From Escherichia phage OLB35, in sequence record MH992122.1: a stretch of 64,000 bases of DNA. The stretch is one strand, 5' to 3'. The translations under genes and the position numbers were made by a program. The notes under the pieces were generated by a model. The model did not search any database, was not told the DNA's origin, and was given only the letters and a program-made list of their open reading frames with translations. Positions 2,520 to 61,905 of this stretch are shown piece after piece. Position 1 is the first letter of the stretch, and every line of letters begins with the position of its first letter.

Positions 2520-3620
2520 TTACGCTGTGAAGATTTTATCCCACATCGCAACAACTGCATCTCGGTTATACTTCTTCCATACTGCTTCAGCACGTTTAAC
2601 TCGAGCTTCGTATGTGTCAGTGAATTCTAATACAGCTTTTGTGTAAAGCGCAACTACTTCTTTCTTAGGAGTAGAGGAATCAATTTCTACACGCACAGTA
2701 TCTGGGTCGTATTCGAATGTCGCATGAGGATAATCCTTAAAAACTAACTGAATTACAGGGACACCTTTAGAGATGGCTTCAATAGAACTATTCTCTACCG
2801 TACCCGTGTCAGGACACGTATTGATAAGTGCTTTAGCTGTTTTAAGACGTTCCATGATTTCACTGTGTGGAGCATCAATAATAACAGGATACTTAGCCGG
2901 TGGTGCCCATTTACTAGGACAATAACCAATACCATTTTCGCCTAGTGCTTTAATCGCTTCAAGAGCAACATCAGTACGACGCATTTTAGTGTCATAACGT
3001 TGTGCACTAATAATCAGATCAGTCGCCGGAAGAATTTCAGGTTTCTCATTCAAACAAATAACCGGATAATCTTCAGCTTCAAACAACGGATTTGCTCGCC
3101 AATAATCATAATCAATTTTGTCAGTCAGACCTGAAGTCATATAACAATATTTGCGTTCAAATTCACGGAAGGCTTTAGTAGGAGCATAACTCTTACCACC
3201 GTTCTTATGAATTTGAATAGTCTGGTCCCAAATTTGAACAATGCCACGAGATACAGGTTCAAATGGTGTTGCCATAAAATTCTTATGAACTTTAGAAAGA
3301 CCTGCGTCTTTAATTGCCTGAACGGTTAGTTTGGTCGGTTCCATTGTAACAACGAAATCGTACTCATTAATGCCGGCTAGTTCAACAATCTTACGAGCCA
3401 TAGTATAACTCATACCTAGACTGAATTTAGTCAGATGACCAACAGGATGATGATTAACCTTCCAATCACCAAATGTGTCATTATCAAAGCCGATATAATC
3501 AATATCAGCACCGATGGACACAAGATATTTCAACACATTTAAATGTACTGCTTCAAGACCACCTTGTACACGTTCTGGGTTAAATGGGACTGCGCGAGAT
3601 GGGATAAACATAACTTTCAT
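2520..3620 (-). CDS. glycosyltransferase (GT-B/GT1-like), candidate DNA hmC glycosyl(arabinosyl)transferase
   Basis: 366-aa ORF; C-terminal ...TGTVENSSIEAISKGVPVI... resembles GT1 nucleotide-sugar binding motif; lies between rIIA.1 and 39 where T4 has gene 60/mobA. Confidence 0.55.
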   Translation of the reverse strand: MKVMFIPSRAVPFNPERVQGGLEAVHLNVLKYLVSIGADIDYIGFDNDTFGDWKVNHHPVGHLTKFSLGMSYTMARKIVELAGINEYDFVVTMEPTKLTVQAIKDAGLSKVHKNFMATPFEPVSRGIVQIWDQTIQIHKNGGKSYAPTKAFREFERKYCYMTSGLTDKIDYDYWRANPLFEAEDYPVICLNEKPEILPATDLIISAQRYDTKMRRTDVALEAIKALGENGIGYCPSKWAPPAKYPVIIDAPHSEIMERLKTAKALINTCPDTGTVENSSIEAISKGVPVIQLVFKDYPHATFEYDPDTVRVEIDSSTPKKEVVALYTKAVLEFTDTYEARVKRAEAVWKKYNRDAVVAMWDKIFTA

Positions 3621-11443: not shown

Positions 11444-12049
11444 TTAATTTAGTTTTAGTTTTCCAGTCAGAGCCTTTAAAAGAAGAACGTTGAGTTTAGT
11501 AAGTTCATGTCCTTCCGCTTGATGTGAGCCGTTAATGCGTGCTTTCAAAGCAACAATTCTAAGTTTAGATTCGTTAGATAAAGGTTGATTTTTCATCATG
11601 TTCGCCATATGCTTAACACGATTTTCACGTTTTGCTCGGATTTTTAAAATAGTACCATAAACCTTTTTGATTTGGGCCCATTTCTTCTCGTCGAGATTAA
11701 GTTTCTCTACTTTACGGGCAGAAGGATTAGCGATACGTCTTGCAATGGCATCACGTTTCTCAATAAGTTCTTCTAATGTTAAATCAGAACGAGCCGTGTT
11801 ATATTTTTTCTTAACTGGGATAACATTACCTTTAATGTAGCCGATATTGTTATCAAAACGTTCTAAGGATAATTTCTCACCTTCAACAGAGTTATTGAAA
11901 GATTCACCTGAGTAAGCGCAGACCTTTTGATCAAGAATGTTTTTAAGGTAGTTAAAGTCTAAGTTAAAATCCTTAGAGCGTCTCTTCGCAGAAGCTCTGG
12001 TGTGGTCAAGACGACGATTTATTTTGTTAATTTTATTATTTGATAACAT
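11444..12049 (-). CDS. hypothetical protein in srd position
   Basis: 201-aa ORF between dda.1 and modA-like gene; own early promoter upstream; identity with T4 Srd not verified. Confidence 0.45.
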   Translation of the reverse strand: MLSNNKINKINRRLDHTRASAKRRSKDFNLDFNYLKNILDQKVCAYSGESFNNSVEGEKLSLERFDNNIGYIKGNVIPVKKKYNTARSDLTLEELIEKRDAIARRIANPSARKVEKLNLDEKKWAQIKKVYGTILKIRAKRENRVKHMANMMKNQPLSNESKLRIVALKARINGSHQAEGHELTKLNVLLLKALTGKLKLN

Positions 12050-12201: not shown

Positions 12202-12810
12202 TCAGTAACCGACAATAGACAGATTCCAGATTGTATAACGTCCATCTTGAATAATAGAATCTACACGCAGTGTAGTCCCTATAGGGAGCATAAATTCGCA
12301 TTCGTCAGATATAAGTCTAGCATTAGACCGTCTTGTAGCTTCAGGGAAAGCTCCATTGAACTCACAAGATGGCGCAGCCAGAATCATGTTAAGCATATGT
12401 TCACGGAAGTTGAAAGCAAATGGTGCATCTTTGATGCAGAACATATTAAATGTTCCATAAAAATTATATGAAGCGAAGTTACGTGCTACACCGAACACTG
12501 GACTAAAGCTCATTACTCTATCAAATTTAATAATACTACCAACATCTTTATCGTCGAGTGTGGCCATAGTTTTCTTAGAGATTCCACGATACATTGTCTC
12601 AGGAACAGAAGACGTCCAATTTCTACGAACAATTGCACTTAAATCTTGTTGGATGCTATCAGGCTTGTTTTCCATACACTGCCATAGTACACTTTGTTCA
12701 ATGTCGCTGAATTGCTCATCGATTTTGTACTGAAGCATATCTTGATAATCTGGGCATTGAGCACGACGAACCATTTCTTCAATTTCACACTCGTTATACG
12801 GCATAAACAT
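12202..12810 (-). CDS. modA: ADP-ribosyltransferase, ModA-like
   Basis: 202-aa ORF with R-S-E ART motifs (..YRG.., ..SFS.., ..ECEF..); T4 synteny after srd position. Confidence 0.65.
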   Translation of the reverse strand: MFMPYNECEIEEMVRRAQCPDYQDMLQYKIDEQFSDIEQSVLWQCMENKPDSIQQDLSAIVRRNWTSSVPETMYRGISKKTMATLDDKDVGSIIKFDRVMSFSPVFGVARNFASYNFYGTFNMFCIKDAPFAFNFREHMLNMILAAPSCEFNGAFPEATRRSNARLISDECEFMLPIGTTLRVDSIIQDGRYTIWNLSIVGY

Positions 12811-12867
12811 TTAGGTTTCTCCTGTGGTTGATAAAGGTATAGTATCATCATCGGAAGAGTTTGTACA

Positions 12868-13449
12868 CTAAAAATTCAACATTTTTAAATGAATGATTTT
12901 GTATAACCGAGATAAAGGGTCATATTCTAAGTCTTCAATTTCTACAATCTCAAATCTAGAGATACCTGAGACCATGTATTCTTGTTCAGATTCAATCATA
13001 TCTAGGACGTCAACACGTTTTTCTTCCATAACATGCTTAGGGTTCTTTCCGGCGAGTACAATGTTAACCATGTTTTGGTAGTAATCGAAAATGAACGGAG
13101 CATTCCTGAGACTAAGAATAGTGTACGTCTGATATTCCCAACTCCCAGAGAACTGTCTGGCCGTACCAAAGTCTGTTGTAAACGATGTTACTCGTCCAGG
13201 AGACCAATGGCATCCAACAGAAAGAAGGGAAAGACGTTCTACTTCTTCTGGAGTTACACCACGGTAGAGTTCTACTGGTACTGTAGAAGTCATATGCTTA
13301 CGAACAAGACGGTCTAATTCATAGTGGAAATCTGGGTCTTCCTTAGAATCAGTGCAAGCCCAGAGAATGTTTTGTTCTTGGCGGGTGAATTTGCTATCAA
13401 TCAGATTTGTTAGGTATTCGCGTTCTTGAAGTTCAGATTGACATGTCAT
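12868..13449 (-). CDS. modB: ADP-ribosyltransferase, ModB-like
   Basis: 193-aa ORF with ..YRG.., ..SFTT.., ..EQEY.. motifs; paralog of neighbouring gene. Confidence 0.65.
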   Translation of the reverse strand: MTCQSELQEREYLTNLIDSKFTRQEQNILWACTDSKEDPDFHYELDRLVRKHMTSTVPVELYRGVTPEEVERLSLLSVGCHWSPGRVTSFTTDFGTARQFSGSWEYQTYTILSLRNAPFIFDYYQNMVNIVLAGKNPKHVMEEKRVDVLDMIESEQEYMVSGISRFEIVEIEDLEYDPLSRLYKIIHLKMLNF

Positions 13450-20068: not shown

Positions 20069-20185
20069 ACACAGTAGTATGTGGGGCTTGTAAACAGTTA
20101 TTTTAAAATTATCGAAAATCTGCTTCGAAAACTTTCTCGTCATTAACAAATGCTTTAACTAATGCTTTGTTCACTTCAGCAAGAT
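20069..20185. repeat. direct repeat copy 2 (genuine dmd 3' end + early promoter)
   Basis: second copy, separated from copy 1 by a 34-bp unique spacer. Confidence 0.85.
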
Positions 20186-20303
20186 TGTACCGTAACCCAC
20201 TCGATTTCTTCGCGATCACCTGATAACATGATAACACTTCTTTAGTGAACATCTCCCCGCTTTTAAACCAGCCGATAAAAGTCACTTTAGTTATAATGCT
20301 CAT
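20109..20303 (-). CDS. dmd: Dmd antitoxin (inhibitor of host RnlA/LsoA toxins)
   Basis: ORF 20109-20351 trimmed to ATG at 20301-20303; ...VTFIGWFKSGEMFTKEV...AEVNKALVKAFVNDEKVFEADFR resembles T4 Dmd. Confidence 0.7.
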   Translation of the reverse strand: MSIITKVTFIGWFKSGEMFTKEVLSCYQVIAKKSSGLRYNLAEVNKALVKAFVNDEKVFEADFR

Positions 20304-20304
20304 T

Positions 20305-20622
20305 TTAGATTTCCTCGCAAAATGCCCATTCAGCGTGATAAACTGTAGCACCTTTAGTATTATTCATTTGAACTACATCTACCGGAGAAATTACTCGATA
20401 GAGACGTGGTTCACCTCCATAAGAGCGTGCTGCTCGTCCTGCATAAATCTTTGCTAAACCGATATCTTCAGTAAAGAATACACGATCCAAGTTTTTCTTA
20501 CGTCCAGTTTCAGACAGAACTCCTGTTTCTTCAGGAGGACAAAGCATGTTTTCGATGTTAGCTGAACTACTTGAACCGTGATAAAAAATCTTAAATTTTG
20601 CTTTACAATCGATGGTTTTCAT
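20305..20622 (-). CDS. hypothetical protein
   Basis: 105-aa ORF with ATG; early promoter and hairpin upstream. Confidence 0.5.
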   Translation of the reverse strand: MKTIDCKAKFKIFYHGSSSSANIENMLCPPEETGVLSETGRKKNLDRVFFTEDIGLAKIYAGRAARSYGGEPRLYRVISPVDVVQMNNTKGATVYHAEWAFCEEI

Positions 20623-24748: not shown

Positions 24749-25648
24749 TTATTCCTCGATTACGACATCTTCGTATTTAGGTATATTATACGGCGAAGAA
24801 ATTAAAGCGTTAAAGTAGATGAACTCACCAAGACCTGGATGGAATACTTCTTCAGGATTTTCGAAATATTGAATCTTCGGACGTCCTTTAAGAATTTGAT
24901 AGTACTCAGTTTTAGTTGGTTTAAAAATTCGAATCAGCGCTTCTTCAGGATACTTATTTCTGTCAAAGCTATTATTTGGATCAGTTATATAAAGCGGTTG
25001 ACCTAATTGAATTGCACATTCAACCACTTGTTCAAAATGATAACACGGATCACTAATTCGAAATGGATGAAAAATACCATCTACATGAATAGGAGCCAAA
25101 TCACCTACAAGACGCTGCATGATGGAAGGACGTATAACTTTCTGCGTTACGATAATCTTATTACCATCTGCACCGGCGTTAACCAGCACTTCTTTTTGAC
25201 GTTCATTCAACACAGTAGTTTGAAGTGAACGATTAACTGACAACATATCGGTTTTTAAGAATTCGTCAATATAAAAACGTGGTTTATTAGGGTCTGCCGT
25301 GATATTGAAATTGAATTCTACATCAAAAGCGCCGTCATATCCAGTGATATCTGTTATTAGAAAATCACAATCATAATAAGCAATTAATGAATCAACCACA
25401 AATTCATTTTCAGACCAGAAATATTTACGAGTGTTATACGCGTTATCTTTATACCATAATGGAACAAACTTAAATTCCGGGAAAAGACGTTCACATTCTT
25501 TAATATCAGATGCATTACGTGGATATGTAATCACATCACCTGGATTAGCACGGTGCAAATGAAGTTGGAAGTTGCCGTCCTTAAGGATAGCATACTGTCC
25601 AGTTTCATAAGACCGCATACTCAAGATTGGTACGCGGAAAATAGCCAT
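24749..25648 (-). CDS. hypothetical protein at the T4 beta-gt position (candidate DNA-modifying transferase)
   Basis: 299-aa ORF between uvsX and gene 42; overlaps gene 42 stop; no recognisable T4 Bgt similarity. Confidence 0.5.
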   Translation of the reverse strand: MAIFRVPILSMRSYETGQYAILKDGNFQLHLHRANPGDVITYPRNASDIKECERLFPEFKFVPLWYKDNAYNTRKYFWSENEFVVDSLIAYYDCDFLITDITGYDGAFDVEFNFNITADPNKPRFYIDEFLKTDMLSVNRSLQTTVLNERQKEVLVNAGADGNKIIVTQKVIRPSIMQRLVGDLAPIHVDGIFHPFRISDPCYHFEQVVECAIQLGQPLYITDPNNSFDRNKYPEEALIRIFKPTKTEYYQILKGRPKIQYFENPEEVFHPGLGEFIYFNALISSPYNIPKYEDVVIEE

Positions 25649-26993: not shown

Positions 26994-27803
26994 TCATGAA
27001 ACTTTGAATTGAGTGATACCAATATCATTATAAAGTTTCAAATCTTGAGGACGAACAAAACGAGTTCTCAGCCAGTTAAATGGGTCTGTATCACGAGCTT
27101 TAATACAGTGCTGCATTGGATATCCATTTAAGGATTTAGCATCATCAGCGGTAACATCAGTACTATGGAAAATATAGCAAGAGACACGATAGCTACAATG
27201 TGTTGTATACCCTTTACCAGCATTAGAACAGAACTCATTTACAAGAACTTCAAATATTATATTGTTCTTATTGCAAAACTCTGCTGCACGCTTCAGGAAA
27301 GAAACTGAACGGTTCTTATGAATTCCGCAACAGACTTTTTTGATGTTATATTGGTCATGCAAGTATTTGATTTGAGTTACAGCATCGACATGTAGAATTG
27401 TTGAAACTTCAATCTCAATATCTTTATTGACTTCACGAACAATTTCCATAACAACAGGGTTAGCGATAGTAATACGCCATACGCCTATTGACCAAAGATA
27501 CTGAACATAATCCTGAATAGCTTTCTTCTTCCACTCAACTAGTTCTCTTTTTGAACCAGGATTTATCGTGTTGAGTGTATAGTTAAAGCAAATACCTAAT
27601 TCGTTACAACGTTTAACGTAGTCTTCTAACATCTTTTTGTCAACGTCAGGAAGCCTAAAATCAGGTCTGGCTGCTACAAAAGCCATTTCTCTTGTAGAGC
27701 CATATACTTCGTTTATCAAGCTATTAGGATAGGTTTTATTGAGCTCTACGATTTTATCAAGAAGAGCTAAATCAAAATTCGTTCCGATTTTAAAAGTATT
27801 CAT
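26994..27803 (-). CDS. Cys-rich enzyme, possibly peptidase-U32-like TIM barrel (family uncertain)
   Basis: 269-aa ORF; ...EVLVNEFCSNAGKGYTTHCSYRVSC... weakly resembles the U32 signature; ends at in-frame TGA 26994-26996. Confidence 0.5.
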   Translation of the reverse strand: MNTFKIGTNFDLALLDKIVELNKTYPNSLINEVYGSTREMAFVAARPDFRLPDVDKKMLEDYVKRCNELGICFNYTLNTINPGSKRELVEWKKKAIQDYVQYLWSIGVWRITIANPVVMEIVREVNKDIEIEVSTILHVDAVTQIKYLHDQYNIKKVCCGIHKNRSVSFLKRAAEFCNKNNIIFEVLVNEFCSNAGKGYTTHCSYRVSCYIFHSTDVTADDAKSLNGYPMQHCIKARDTDPFNWLRTRFVRPQDLKLYNDIGITQFKVS

Positions 27804-27861: not shown

Positions 27862-28263
27862 TTATAGATTCGGTTTATACGATTTAAATGTTTCGAATTC
27901 GCCTTTATTCATAAGAGCTTTGAATTCGTCAGGACGCATAGCTTTGTCGTCGATAATCCAATCATATACTGGTTTATGTGTTAGCAAATTATGGTACTTC
28001 AAGCCAATGTTTGCCAAGTTCTGAATCAGACTTGGGAGAATGTCAATTGCTATACGACCAGGACCTACTGACTTCATACCGCGAGCAGTGTAAAGCGTTA
28101 TGGTATGCCCTGCATCATACAGGGCATTAATGGCGGTCACCATTTCGACGTCTGGTTTGAAGTTCACATAATCACGATTGTTATTCCACTCTGTTATACA
28201 ATCATCGACATCAAAACAAAGATTAAGCATGTTTTCTACACGGTGCATTAGATTCGTTCCCAT
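27862..28263 (-). CDS. HAD-superfamily phosphatase (sugar-phosphate phosphatase-like)
   Basis: motif I FDVDDCIT, motif II TLYTARG, Lys and WIIDDKA; alternative ATG at 28246-28248 overlaps upstream stop (TAATG). Confidence 0.65.
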   Translation of the reverse strand: MGTNLMHRVENMLNLCFDVDDCITEWNNNRDYVNFKPDVEMVTAINALYDAGHTITLYTARGMKSVGPGRIAIDILPSLIQNLANIGLKYHNLLTHKPVYDWIIDDKAMRPDEFKALMNKGEFETFKSYKPNL

Positions 28264-29933
28264 TGATGAGTGATATCGCCACCGATTGGACGATAGGAAA
28301 CACCAGTTTCTTTATCAGTTAGTACCCATTTACCAGGATTTTTTGTAATCAGAGTAGCCGTTACAGGTTCTGCTACGTCATAACTAATAGAGCCGTCTTG
28401 AAGTACACGGCCCATGTTACGTAATTGCTTAGTTAGAAGTTCCATACCTTTATAATATGCGGCTACCGCTTTAAGTGGATTATTCTTGAAATAACCACCT
28501 AATGCAATCCAGATAATTGCCACTGCCAAATGATGATACTCGTTAAACGAACTCATCTTTCCATATTTGTAAACTAATGGATTGATGTTAATAGTCACAT
28601 TACAAGTTGTTTCATCAATAGTAAACTGGCCCCAGGTCGGATTAGCGTTGAATTCATCATAACCTGAAACAGCATAAAGCACTTTAGCTTCATCATACAA
28701 TTTTGGCCCGTAAATCTTGGTTTCACCAAAATATCCACGAGGGTCGATAAACTTGACTTCGCCGTTATCAGTAATCATAGTATTACTGAAGTTTGGGTCA
28801 CCGTGAATAACAGAGTACTGTCCCTGAGAACGGTTATGATAACGAATAAGGTGTTCTAAAGCTTGTTTCAGCATTGGCTTCAGCCGTCCAATCTTAGTGT
28901 AGTTCACATGTGTGATTTTACCAAATGAATCAATCAATGGTTGAATGCTTTCACAACGATCAATAACTTTCGTATAGAATTCTTTAGTGAAATCACGACG
29001 AACAGTTTCAGGACTTACAAAATAAGTGTCTGTGCTGAATTTCAGTGCATCTAAAATTGCATCAACAATTTGTGGACGAGCAAGACTTGATTTGGATTTA
29101 ATATATTCAAATGCTGGCTTACCTTTAATGCGTTCCATTTCAAAGTTATTTTCATTAACAGAAACTAACTGAGGAACTGAATCTGATTTCACTTTAAGAT
29201 ACCACGAAATCTCATCTTTCTGAAGAGCTCGTCCCTGTTCGGTTAATGCGAATTTAGTTACAGTTTCTTCACCAATTTCAACTGCATTAAAACTACGATT
29301 AAGTTCACGAACTTCATGAGCTTTTTCGAGTTTAGGCATATCACCTAAATCAATTAGATTCATAAGCTCTGATTTATTGAATGCACTGCCGTAAAGGAAT
29401 TCTACGAAATCACGCCCTTTGCAGTATTCATGAATTTCCTCATCAGTAGAACCCATATAGAATTCCCAGTCTTTGAACTGATAAATTCCTACAACATTAC
29501 CGCCTGTTGAACCTACGTTAGTGATATTTTCACCATCGAAATTATATCGACATTCATCACCCTTAACATAGATTGCGTTAACATTCCAAGACCATGAACC
29601 AAAATCAGGAATAATATCACACCAGTTAACAATTACGTTATGGCCATCTAAATCTTTGTATAATTTAGCAAGAGCATAAGCAGAACCATACGCTTCATCA
29701 ACTGTACGAATAGTCACATTGAACCCTTCTTGCTCACAATAAGCTCGAACAGTTTCAACAAATTTTGAATGAACTACTACAATAATTTCATCTGCACCAA
29801 GGTCAGAATAAATTGTATACAAATTGCTCAGAATAGTGTCTTGTTTATAGTTAACAAGCACCTTAGGAATATGGTGCGTTATTGGATACAAACGAGTTGC
29901 CAGTCCAGCACCAAGAATAACAGCTTTTTTCAT
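28248..29933 (-). CDS. bifunctional sugar-1-phosphate nucleotidyltransferase / anomeric sugar kinase (APH-like)
   Basis: 561 aa; N-terminal MKKAVILGAGLATRLYPITHHIPKVLV (NTP-transferase G-x-G-x-R-L); C-terminal ...IHGDPNFSNTMITDNGEVKFIDPRGYFG (kinase catalytic loop). Confidence 0.8.
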   Translation of the reverse strand: MKKAVILGAGLATRLYPITHHIPKVLVNYKQDTILSNLYTIYSDLGADEIIVVVHSKFVETVRAYCEQEGFNVTIRTVDEAYGSAYALAKLYKDLDGHNVIVNWCDIIPDFGSWSWNVNAIYVKGDECRYNFDGENITNVGSTGGNVVGIYQFKDWEFYMGSTDEEIHEYCKGRDFVEFLYGSAFNKSELMNLIDLGDMPKLEKAHEVRELNRSFNAVEIGEETVTKFALTEQGRALQKDEISWYLKVKSDSVPQLVSVNENNFEMERIKGKPAFEYIKSKSSLARPQIVDAILDALKFSTDTYFVSPETVRRDFTKEFYTKVIDRCESIQPLIDSFGKITHVNYTKIGRLKPMLKQALEHLIRYHNRSQGQYSVIHGDPNFSNTMITDNGEVKFIDPRGYFGETKIYGPKLYDEAKVLYAVSGYDEFNANPTWGQFTIDETTCNVTININPLVYKYGKMSSFNEYHHLAVAIIWIALGGYFKNNPLKAVAAYYKGMELLTKQLRNMGRVLQDGSISYDVAEPVTATLITKNPGKWVLTDKETGVSYRPIGGDITHQWERI

Positions 29934-30194
29934 GTTGTGGTCCTCATTGGTAAGTAGGTGTATTGTACACTATTCTAGTTAAAGCATTCATACTTTGCTT
30001 GTAGTCCAATCATAATCCATCCGATTATAAGAGTCGGAATCATTACTGGAGCCGTTAAGCTCCAGTAGATAGTCATGACAAGCATCAATAGTAAAAGTCC
30101 TATTGTTATTGCTTTCATTGCTCGCCTCGTAACATGGCACCTAGTGCACCACCAGGGTGGAACTTAAGGAAGATCATTAGAGGTAAATCCACGT

Positions 30195-30753
30195 TCAGAT
30201 GAAAGGTTGATAGCGAACGTATCGATAAGCGCTAACAACAATGTAGTGGACATGGTCGGAGCTAAAGAGATTCTCGTCGACCTCTACCGCGATGCCTGTA
30301 CAGAAAGAGTAATCAAAAAGGGCTTCATTTTCTTGCGGAATGTCCGGGTTACAATGCAACAGAATCTGTTTAACCTGAGGACGAATCATACGAAGATGTT
30401 TAGCAACACCTATCATTTCTTCGGTCTTACCAGAACGACTAATATGAATCAACACATCATTAGGCGCAATGAATCCTGCATCACCATGAGAATAATGCCC
30501 GGTGTTCAAATACATGCTAGGAATACCCAATGAAGCAAAATGTCTCGGAAGCTTTAGTTGCGATATTAGCGTTCTTACCGACACCTGTAATAATTACACG
30601 ACTTTCATAATTGCTCAGTCCTGGGCGACGAAGAGTTTCAAGAATAGCATTATATCGGGCAGGGTTTTTACTAATTACTTTAGCCATAGTAGCCAAAGAA
30701 GAAGCTTGTTTTACGATTGCGTCAATAGCGATAGTGATTGGTGTAGTTTTCAT
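30195..30753 (-). CDS. SIS-domain sugar-phosphate isomerase (GmhA/KdsD-like), frame broken at a homopolymer
   Basis: ORFs 30517-30753 (...ITGVGKNANIATKASETF) and 30195-30584 (...ASLGIPS...HGDAGFIAPNDVLIHISRSGKTEE) join into one SIS domain if one T is removed from the run at 30537-30540. Confidence 0.65.
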
Positions 30754-30793: not shown

Positions 30794-33531
30794 TCAAAAA
30801 TCAAACATATCGAACAGAGATGCTTTCTTCTCGTAATCGAGTTTAGCTGCTGTTGTGAATCCTTCAAGTGGTTTAATAAATGTCTTCTCAAGGAGAACAG
30901 TATAGTCCATCCAATGAAGTACATCATCTTTGATTAAATCGGTGATTTCCGTACCAGAAGGCCATGCGATACATTTATCACCGAACGGGTTTCCATCACG
31001 TAAAGGCAGAACATATACTTTTTCACCTTCTACAACTTGTGGAGCATCAATATTACCTTTGATAGCTCGGTTATATGTCAGAATTCCACGAATATGGAAC
31101 GGACATTTAGGACCAGGGAATCCACCAACGTCATATTTAGCAATGTTATTCGCAGAAGATACCGCCGCGATGCTAATATAATTCAATTGACGGAATTCTT
31201 TTTCAAACTCTTTAAAATATTCTTGTAATGATTCTTCACCTTCTTGAAGCATACGACGAATACATTCTTTAAGAGCTTTCTGTACTGCTTTAGGGGTCGA
31301 AGATTTCTGAGTCTCTAGACCCATGATTTTGAGTTTAGGCTCAGCGTATCTGGTTCCTTCCATATCCCACACGTTTAATGCATAACGTTTCTTACCAGTC
31401 CAGAATCCACCAATACCTTTAGAACCGAGCGGAGGACCAGCGATAGCTTCTCGGTCCATGAACATTAAGTGTTGTTTATTGTTCATGTATTCGCACATTT
31501 CACGGAAACCTCTATCAATAGCCGGTTCCATACGTTCACGTGCAAACTTATCTAAGAAGTCTACCCAATGGTTGGTATCACGGAATTTAGATTCACCGAC
31601 CTTATCAATAATTTTATCAGCAGATACGTAAATAGAGTCTGTATCACCGTAAAGAACGAAAGCTTCACCTTCTGTACCACAAACTTCGTTCAGATATTCA
31701 TTAACTTTACGTTCAATCCACTGTAAAGCCATTTGCCCAAATGTTGTGATTGCAGTAGCATTACGCAAATCATAATAACGGAACCAAACGTTGCCAAGTG
31801 CACCATAAAGCGAGTTGATGAGCAATTTACGGTTAATTTGTGCAGTCATACCTGCAACTTCAGTACGTTGAGCTCTAAACAACATTTCATTAAGAGATTT
31901 AGCAGACAACTTTTTAATCTTTTCTTTAATCTCATCGCTGAAGTCGAAACGATAATCAACATCTAATGGTTCGTCAACAGAAAGATTAGGATTATGTAAG
32001 GCTTCTTTAATTATTTCACCATTACGTTGAGCTGCAAGCATGTAACCTTTATGTTCTTTACGTTGATTAAAGACCTTAGTGATTTCAGTTGGAACTACAC
32101 CATCACGGTCTTTATAATACATCATGCCGTTAGGAGAGCAACTGTACACATCTGAAGGACGTTCAGCGATTGCGTTAATATAATCATGCAATGGAGCTAC
32201 TTTAAACGTTCCTGCTATTGTTTCTGGGCTAATATTCACTTGGCGAATAATACTTGGATACAGAGATGTAAGGTCGAAACTCATTACATATTTGTATCGA
32301 TTTGGAATAGGTTCCTTAACAAAAGCGCCAGGATAAGGTTGAACCTGGTGAGAACGACCTTGTGGAATCACCTTGTTCTGCTCTTTAAGGCTATTAAAAA
32401 TAATAACATCCCATGTTTTAATTGGGCTAAACACAGATTGAATCTGTATCTTAGCATAATAACCCATGTCCAAACTCAAGTTTATGAACTGGCGTTTAGC
32501 ATCAATTTGCAATACACGATACACGTCGATAATGTTATAAGAAATATATCGTTGGTGATTACTTTCACGAAGTTTAGAAATAGGACCGTCATATTTCAGT
32601 TTACCGACATTCAATTCAAATTCTGAAATGTAATCCAGAGAATACGACGGTTGGTTTGTGAAAGAGAATTTTTTGTAAAGGTCGATATAATCAAGAACAG
32701 AGATACCGAACAATGTAATGATTTCACGAGAACCGTACATGTTTTCAATAACTTTAACACGAGTCTTGCGATACTGCAAAAACCTAGATCATTGTCGGGT
32801 GGTGATAAACGTTTCGCAGTAGATTCGCCAAAAATATTCTTGATTCGGTTATACACATATGGAATATCAAATGACTCAACGTTCCATCCAGTCAAAATGA
32901 CAGGAGTTTTCTGTTGCCAGAAGTTGAGATATTCCATCAACAATTCTTTTTCGTTATCAAACGGCATATAAATGATTTTATCAATAATTTCGGATGGAAC
33001 TTCATCACCACCTTGTTCTTGAAGCTTAGCAGCGATTTCAATAGACCATTCTTCTACATTACCATATGGAGAATTCAATAGATCAAATACGTAGAACCTG
33101 TCGTCAATTGAGTCATAATGGGTGATAGCATCAATCGGATGTTTTGCTTGTGACGGCTCAGGGAACCCATCCGGAGATGTTACTTCGATGTCGAAGTTAG
33201 CCACACGAATTTTTGTATGGTCGTATTTGATTTCATAGTTATAAGTGTCAGACAAATACGCCAATTTGAAATCGTCCATACCTAATGCTTCAAGACCAAT
33301 ATCTTCCATGCGTTTAATCCATTGGGAGGCATCACGCATATTAGCGAACAACTTACGAGTACACGGCTTACCGTAGATATCGAAATATTTAGTAGCCTGA
33401 CTTTCTGGACAATGAGCAAACAATGATGGTTTATATTCTACTTCACGAGTACGTTCACGGCCATTAGAATCGATGTAACGTTCAAAAATTGAATCACCAA
33501 TCTGTTCAACCGTTAAGTAAAATTCTTTCAT
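30794..33531 (-). CDS. 43: DNA polymerase gp43 (family B), two overlapping frames
   Basis: ORF 32611-33531 (MKEFYLTVEQIGDSIFERYIDSNGRERTREVEY..., RB69-type N-terminus) and ORF 30794-32779 (...NMYGSREIITLFGISVLDY...YGDTDS...); frame break near 32771-32799. Confidence 0.9.
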
Positions 33532-61605: not shown

Positions 61606-61628
61606 CACTTTTTGATAGGAATTAACTT

Positions 61629-61905
61629 TTAAACTGCTTTAGATACTTCGTCACGAACCTGGTGGAAGTTCTTGAGCTGTTCAAGGCGTTGTTCGTAATA
61701 CGCAATCTCATCTTCTTCAAGACAATCGTCAGCGTCTTCTTTCAGATATGCCTTGTACTCATTAAAGAGGGCCCATAGGCGGTTCTCAAAGTCATCAAGG
61801 CTTTGAATTTTCTTGTGCTTAGGAACAAGGCTAAAAGGATTGCTTTCAGTTATGCTTGTGACCTTTTCTTATGAGTTCCAAATACCCAGTAATAGTAGAA
61901 GCCAT
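61629..61905 (-). CDS. hypothetical protein, frame-broken at a homopolymer (absent from the ORF track)
   Basis: ATG 61903-61905 overlaps upstream stop (TAATG); after about 14 codons a T4 run (61864-61867) shifts the frame; the other frame reads ...[57 protein letters not shown] to TAA at 61629-61631. Confidence 0.35.

Follow-up and report, generated by a model that had tools for sequence, protein, structure and literature searches.

Earlier work on RB69-type phages has already described the arabinose-5-phosphate isomerase (API) gene family and its pathway. In RB69, gp55 is assigned the first step, from ribulose-5-phosphate to arabinose-5-phosphate, the gp52:53 kinase/nucleotidyltransferase (AfhE-like) acts next, and the HAD phosphatase gp51 (AfhF-like) follows to give UDP-arabinose; arabinosyltransferases then move arabinose onto modified cytosine in the phage DNA (PMC6024577; PMC13326640). 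The isomerase activity of the phage enzymes was assigned computationally, and a U32-family gene (RB69 ORF050c) is listed in the same arabinosylation module (PMC13326640). The host Escherichia coli has arabinose-5-phosphate isomerases of its own, KdsD and GutQ (PMC6024577). In RB69, recloning followed by Sanger sequencing traced the split between ORF052 and ORF053 to a sequencing error (PMC6024577; PMC13326640).

Here we describe a gene of this family in the deposited genome of Escherichia phage OLB35 (MH992122.1), an RB69-like Mosigvirus, in which the reading frame is broken by three single-base insertions that are probably errors of the record. The analysis covered the first 64,000 nucleotides of the record (the window). 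Like the RB69 record, the window opens at the stop codon of rIIA, and over this region it is 94–97% identical to about 150 Mosigvirus (RB69-like) genomes that list the gene as arabinose-5-phosphate isomerase. The API gene occupies positions 30115–30753 on the minus strand, directly downstream of the T4-type DNA polymerase gene 43 (C-terminus ...ASLFDMFDF). With its stop codon and the three added bases it measures 639 nt; the relatives' version has 636 nt (211 aa). Judged from the sequence, OLB35 has here an arabinose-5-phosphate isomerase of its own, a single SIS domain protein orthologous to RB69 gp55/ORF055c, and the interconversion of ribulose-5-phosphate and arabinose-5-phosphate by this enzyme is predicted from homology and the literature (PMC13326640, PMC6024577). 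Its TGA stop codon (30115–30117) overlaps the ATG of a 47-aa hydrophobic ORF (29975–30118, minus strand; overlap ATGA) that is conserved in relatives and matches the Pfam family PF26865 (Phage_T4_Y02C). Early termination in the API gene could affect any translational coupling to this small ORF.

As deposited, the gene falls into two overlapping ORFs, both on the minus strand: one of 78 aa at 30517–30753 (MKTTP...GVGKN...ETFCFIGYS), closed by a premature TAG stop at 30517–30519, and one of 129 aa at 30195–30584 (...ASLGIPS...HGD...SRSGKTEE...), closed by TGA at 30195–30197. The original prediction held that the two jointly encode one SIS domain interrupted by a single frameshift in a homopolymer, and the joint domain was borne out. 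At the homopolymer (30537–30540) the coding strand does read TTTT, one T more than the TTT of every relative (ACA[T]TTTGC, added base in brackets), and the frame shifts after about residue 76. The frameshift is not single, however: the proposed comparison with related phage genomes also exposed two further insertions, both outside homopolymers. One, at 30269–30270 (GAGAA[T]CTCTTT), shifts the frame after residue 161, the added base being T at 30270 when read against the ATK47 and moha allele (AAC TCT), or else C at 30269 against the CAU_ECP01 allele (AAT TCT). The other is an extra T at 30173 (AATGA[T]CTTCC, where all relatives have GAC TTC), which brings back the original frame for residues 194–211 (FLKFHPGGALGAMLRGEQ).

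The three sites fall at columns 261, 531 and 628 of an alignment of the window with CAU_ECP01, ATK47 and moha, which was complemented by pairwise alignments against CCU7, an NCBI contig and Logan contigs. When the relatives' protein was searched by tblastn, its residues 1–76, 77–161, 162–193 and 194–211 mapped to frames 0, 1, 2 and 0, respectively. Three-frame translation gave the same picture, with the isomerase motifs carrying on in the third frame (...SLAPTMSTTLLLALIDTFAINLSSERGFTSNDLP, closed after ...SNDLP by a TAA at 30164–30166) and then again in the first (KFHPGGALGAMLRGEQ, up to the stop codon). No single frame runs uninterrupted through the whole domain, and its motifs are spread over three frames: GxGK in one, HGD and SxSGxTEE in another, followed by APTxSTT and HPGGxLG. 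As the insertions were found by comparison with homologues and do not constitute a statistical pattern, chance is not at issue. In its deposited form the gene can give only a 78-aa stub, which an exact-sequence look-up located as AYR03963.1, a “hypothetical protein” of the 169,140-bp OLB35 record. Removing one T was expected to restore a protein of about 190 aa; this expectation failed, as the result is an ORF of about 185 aa that ends in some 24 out-of-frame residues (FSSDHVHYIVVSAYRYVRYQPFI) and is devoid of APTxSTT and HPGGxLG, the native length being 211 aa.

With all three bases taken out, the gene encodes a 211-aa protein with no in-frame stops left, 99.5% identical to that of phage GADS24 and 97.6% identical over 211 aa to RB69 gp55 (NP_861745.1). 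The Pfam SIS model (PF01380; gathering cut-off 25) scores the intact ortholog at 40.4 bits and the 129-aa ORF at 17.8 bits, below the cut-off, and finds no match in the 78-aa ORF. Among solved structures, the repaired protein matches 3etn (E = 3.5e-25), 5uqi (1.1e-22) and 2xhz, the SIS domain of E. coli KdsD (8.1e-19), and the GxGK, HGD, SxSGxT.E, APTxSTT and H(P/H)GGxLG motifs align between it and the solved isomerases. As in KdsD, these motifs presumably hold the catalytic residues. The GVGK-to-HGD spacing had been said to equal that of KdsD, and the alignment to 2xhz is indeed free of gaps between the two motifs; the further suggestion of a SIS-type sugar-phosphate isomerase in a DNA-modification pathway accords with the orthology to RB69 gp55. 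The NCBIfam models for KpsF/GutQ (TIGR00393, E = 4.6e-32) and KdsD (E = 1.4e-30) were also matched, with scores under all curated cut-offs (for TIGR00393, 111.7 against a full-length cut-off of 203.7 bits) and with only positions 2–153 of the 268-position TIGR00393 profile covered. A profile search found no C-terminal tandem CBS domain of the kind present in KdsD, GutQ and KpsF in the 211-aa protein, and the lack of this CBS pair explains why the scores stay below the full-length cut-offs. The OLB35 protein belongs to the single-domain isomerase subclass, together with 3etn and 5uqi.

The surrounding module runs in the order gene 43, API, small ORF, AfhE-like kinase/nucleotidyltransferase, HAD phosphatase, U32-family gene, homologue of the dCMP-modifying thymidylate synthase and glycosyltransferases, the same as in RB69, CAU_ECP01 and CCU7. 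The partners of the isomerase in UDP-arabinose supply are intact within the window: the bifunctional kinase/nucleotidyltransferase (28248–29933, minus strand) is a single ORF of 561 aa, and the HAD phosphatase (27865–28248) is likewise unbroken. A glycosyltransferase of the RB69 gp3 type lies at 2523–3620. The U32-family gene has a nonsense codon.

The insertions in the API gene are confined to the OLB35 record. Among the matches listed for 153 phage records, every relative spans 636 nt, compared with 639 in OLB35; in tblastn, an even sampling of 60 of the 275 matches gave only single unbroken pieces, and another 18 loci drawn from IMG/VR, Logan, NCBI and metagenomes likewise had an uninterrupted gene. 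Nine contigs from metagenomes or read sets carried an intact gene and shared no insertion with OLB35. Altogether, none of the three insertions was found in any of the approximately 170 relatives examined. Exact searches of metagenomes and GTDB genomes did not find the frame-shifted pattern of the third site, as compared to four metagenomic matches for the intact pattern; a scan of IMG/VR for exact patterns returned none for the lesions, and none for the intact control either, the sole close relative there differing at the site. Neither OLB35 reads nor an independent assembly were found, exact-protein look-ups returning only other strains of about 97% identity, and our literature search found no paper mentioning OLB35.

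The repaired gene shows no sign of relaxed selection. Its dN/dS against seven relatives is 0.03–0.06, no different from the 0.02–0.06 seen among intact relatives, and only four substitutions, three synonymous and one Q29K, are unique with respect to this seven-member panel, alongside three unique indels. The dN/dS, the near-absence of unique substitutions and the presence of the lesions in no other sequence rule out an old, decaying pseudogene, and we consider three unique indels in the company of four unique substitutions implausible for gradual neutral decay.

Damage elsewhere in the window bears on how the API lesions should be read. The complete set of 88 annotated CAU_ECP01 genes, plus 30 genes from CCU7 (118 in total), was compared with the window, and about 110 of them have a close, full-length, single-frame and stop-free match there. 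Two are absent, one (Dmd) matches at only 64%, and four besides API are damaged, namely gene 43, a Srd-like gene, the U32-family gene and a small ORF near 61.6–61.9 kb. The Dmd region (20116–20310) is variable, with small indels (1, 5 and 5 nt) relative to CAU_ECP01 and CCU7 and a protein identity of 64%, and a 70-aa gene located beside Dmd in CAU_ECP01 (its locus positions 12777–12989) has no counterpart in the OLB35 window.

The most severe of these lesions is a 26-nt insertion (CCGACAATGATCTAGGTTTTTGCAGT; 32773–32798, minus strand) inside the essential DNA polymerase gene 43, some 2 kb upstream of API, which frame-shifts gene 43 into pieces of 306 and 661 aa. The inserted 26-mer is identical at 24 of 26 positions to the relatives' gene 37, which encodes the distal subunit of the long tail fibre, and the similarity stops exactly at the edges of the insert; it recurs in 16 records (95–99% identical) with 25 of 26 matching positions at most. 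In the relatives, gene 37 lies more than 100 kb from gene 43 and in inverted orientation. No other copy of the 26-mer is present within the 64-kb window, and no other record has the insertion in gene 43. The gene 37 piece almost certainly stems from a chimeric read or from contigs that were joined wrongly. A host or vector origin was discarded for want of a match in E. coli genomes, and a translational bypass in the style of T4 gene 60 was dismissed, as the insert is a gene 37 copy that has neither matched take-off and landing codons nor a stop after the take-off codon. Engineered recoding was also considered, on account of four synonymous changes near the insert, and rejected: phage SSE1 matches 164 of the 165 non-insert bases, which identifies these changes as natural polymorphisms. 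Because a viable phage cannot carry a frame-shifted gene 43, one or more assembly or chimera errors must be present in the record close to API.

The remaining lesions are smaller. In the U32-family “peptidase” gene (RB69 ORF050c homolog), codon 270 is changed from GGA, the codon of all relatives, to TGA (26994–26996, minus strand), and the product is shortened from 386 aa to the 269 aa deposited as AYR03958.1. The Srd-like anti-sigma gene, scored relative to CAU_ECP01 and CCU7, has a 2-nt insertion (11478–11479, minus strand; CTTCTT[TT]AAAGGC) that puts the gene out of frame beyond residue 190 of 248. A small hypothetical ORF (61608–61895, minus strand; 99 aa in CCU7), divergent in its N-terminal part, ends seven codons early through an AAA-to-TAA change, which could be natural variation or another lesion. 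Every frame-breaking indel in the window is an insertion (1, 1, 1, 2 and 26 nt), and the small gene-damaging changes all add an A to the plus strand: three single As, one AA, a C-to-A change at 26996 and a T-to-A change that is placed within the 61.6–61.9 kb ORF without being pinned to an exact base. At a plus-strand A frequency of 0.304, seven As would be expected with a probability of 0.304^7, or about 2e-4, in a naive, post-hoc calculation, and this one-sidedness could reflect a systematic artefact of base calling or of the consensus. The substitutions specific to the window are ordinary, dominated by transitions and without A bias, and its other 1-nt indels are intergenic. Along with the approximately 110 clean genes, this excludes a generally error-ridden sequence; the record is good overall, with a small set of suspicious lesions of which five lie within 26.9–32.8 kb.

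The original prediction left the choice between a sequencing error and an inactivating mutation, a framing that proved correct, as the same two remain the main readings. We give a probability of about 0.6 to the former, in which the three extra bases are sequencing or assembly errors of the deposited record. The errors would sit in a locally unreliable stretch of it, and the real OLB35 phage would probably have an intact 211-aa API gene. We favour this reading because an artefactual lesion in gene 43 lies nearby, the repaired gene is fully preserved, the lesions are unique and RB69 offers a precedent; the gene 37 fragment in gene 43 is a lesion incompatible with a viable phage in the same record, and together with the U32-family and Srd-like lesions it moves the balance towards a record artefact. 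What speaks against an artefact is that two of the three insertions lie outside homopolymers, and so are not the classic error of 454, Ion Torrent or nanopore sequencing, and that the cleanness of the rest of the window would require a local cause for three errors in one 639-nt gene. Moreover, the broken genes other than gene 43 (API, U32-family, Srd-like and the small ORF) are plausibly dispensable, as selection would permit, and loss of the phage copy could be tolerable given host KdsD and GutQ (PMC6024577). A genuine and very recent inactivation, possible if doubtful in our judgement, would leave a dead API gene, and perhaps a dead U32-family gene too, with the host enzymes supplying arabinose-5-phosphate and two more frameshifts arising later. 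Clustering of lesions in one gene is expected after gene death, a second gene of the module as listed (PMC13326640) bears the GGA-to-TGA nonsense codon, the host has two isomerases that catalyse this reaction (PMC6024577), the remaining window looks like sequence of good quality, and two of the insertions are unlike typical homopolymer errors. Such an inactivation sits poorly with the low dN/dS and with a single unique amino-acid change among four unique substitutions beside three unique indels, and by our estimate two additional indels are far more than so short a neutral phase should yield. The intactness of the gene in all of the approximately 170 relatives further argues for selection in E. 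coli hosts, and the impossible lesion in gene 43 means that lesions in this record should not be taken at face value. That OLB35 is a natural Mosigvirus which has just lost API, possibly along with the U32-family gene, and lives on the KdsD/GutQ supply of its host seems to us rather unlikely.

Intermediate and functional readings fare worse. The insertion at 30537–30540 could be real (or an error) and the other two of a different origin, the true state then being a single frameshift; only this site lies in a homopolymer, where slippage mutations and sequencing errors are both common, but nothing in the sequence sets the sites apart, all three being unique to the record and adding the same base on the same strand, and we regard such a mixture as very improbable. 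Programmed recoding by three +1 shifts, or a functional split protein, has a negligible chance of being correct. The first site (UUU_U) would let tRNA-Phe re-pair in the +1 frame, and after three +1 shifts the last 18 codons do read in the original frame again, yet the second (AAU_C) and third (GAU_C) sites permit no re-pairing, the shift sites occur in none of the approximately 170 homologues, and three successive low-efficiency events would leave negligible product. A split enzyme is hardly easier to envisage, as the only start of the 129-aa ORF is a GTG internal to the GVG motif that lies within the upstream ORF, and the SIS fold is severed between the fragments. Both versions were ruled out by site context and lack of conservation.

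On the preferred reading of errors in the record, the practical value of these observations is in curation: the OLB35 record appears to hold several gene-breaking errors (three in API, others in gene 43, the U32-family gene and the Srd-like gene), and its truncated “hypothetical proteins” (AYR03963.1 and AYR03958.1 among them) have spread into protein databases. If the lesions were true, OLB35 would be a natural knockout and a test of the need for a phage-encoded isomerase in DNA arabinosylation, meaning either that the first arabinosylation step is dispensable in E. coli or that the phage DNA is under-modified.

Compared with known systems, the locus corresponds most closely to RB69 gp55 (ORF055c), which occupies the same genomic position, with gene 43 upstream and the 47-aa ORF and module genes downstream; the API gene is intact in RB69 and in all other relatives, whereas in OLB35 its frame is broken by three single-base insertions. 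The repaired protein has its motifs in common with Bacteroides fragilis 3etn, with 5uqi/5vhu and with the SIS domain of KdsD (2xhz), at an identity of only about 30–40%, and differs from KdsD, GutQ and KpsF, which carry a C-terminal CBS pair, in being without one. The RB69 reference itself offers the nearest parallel to the broken frame, for genes of the same module (ORF052c/053c and ORF046c/047c) are likewise split in its deposit by single-base errors (PMC6024577; PMC13326640), although with one error per gene, as opposed to three in the one API gene of OLB35. Those genes that are split in RB69 are single intact ORFs in OLB35 (28248–29933, 561 aa, and 24752–25648, 299 aa, both on the minus strand), and the intact OLB35 versions agree with the published view of the RB69 splits as sequencing errors.
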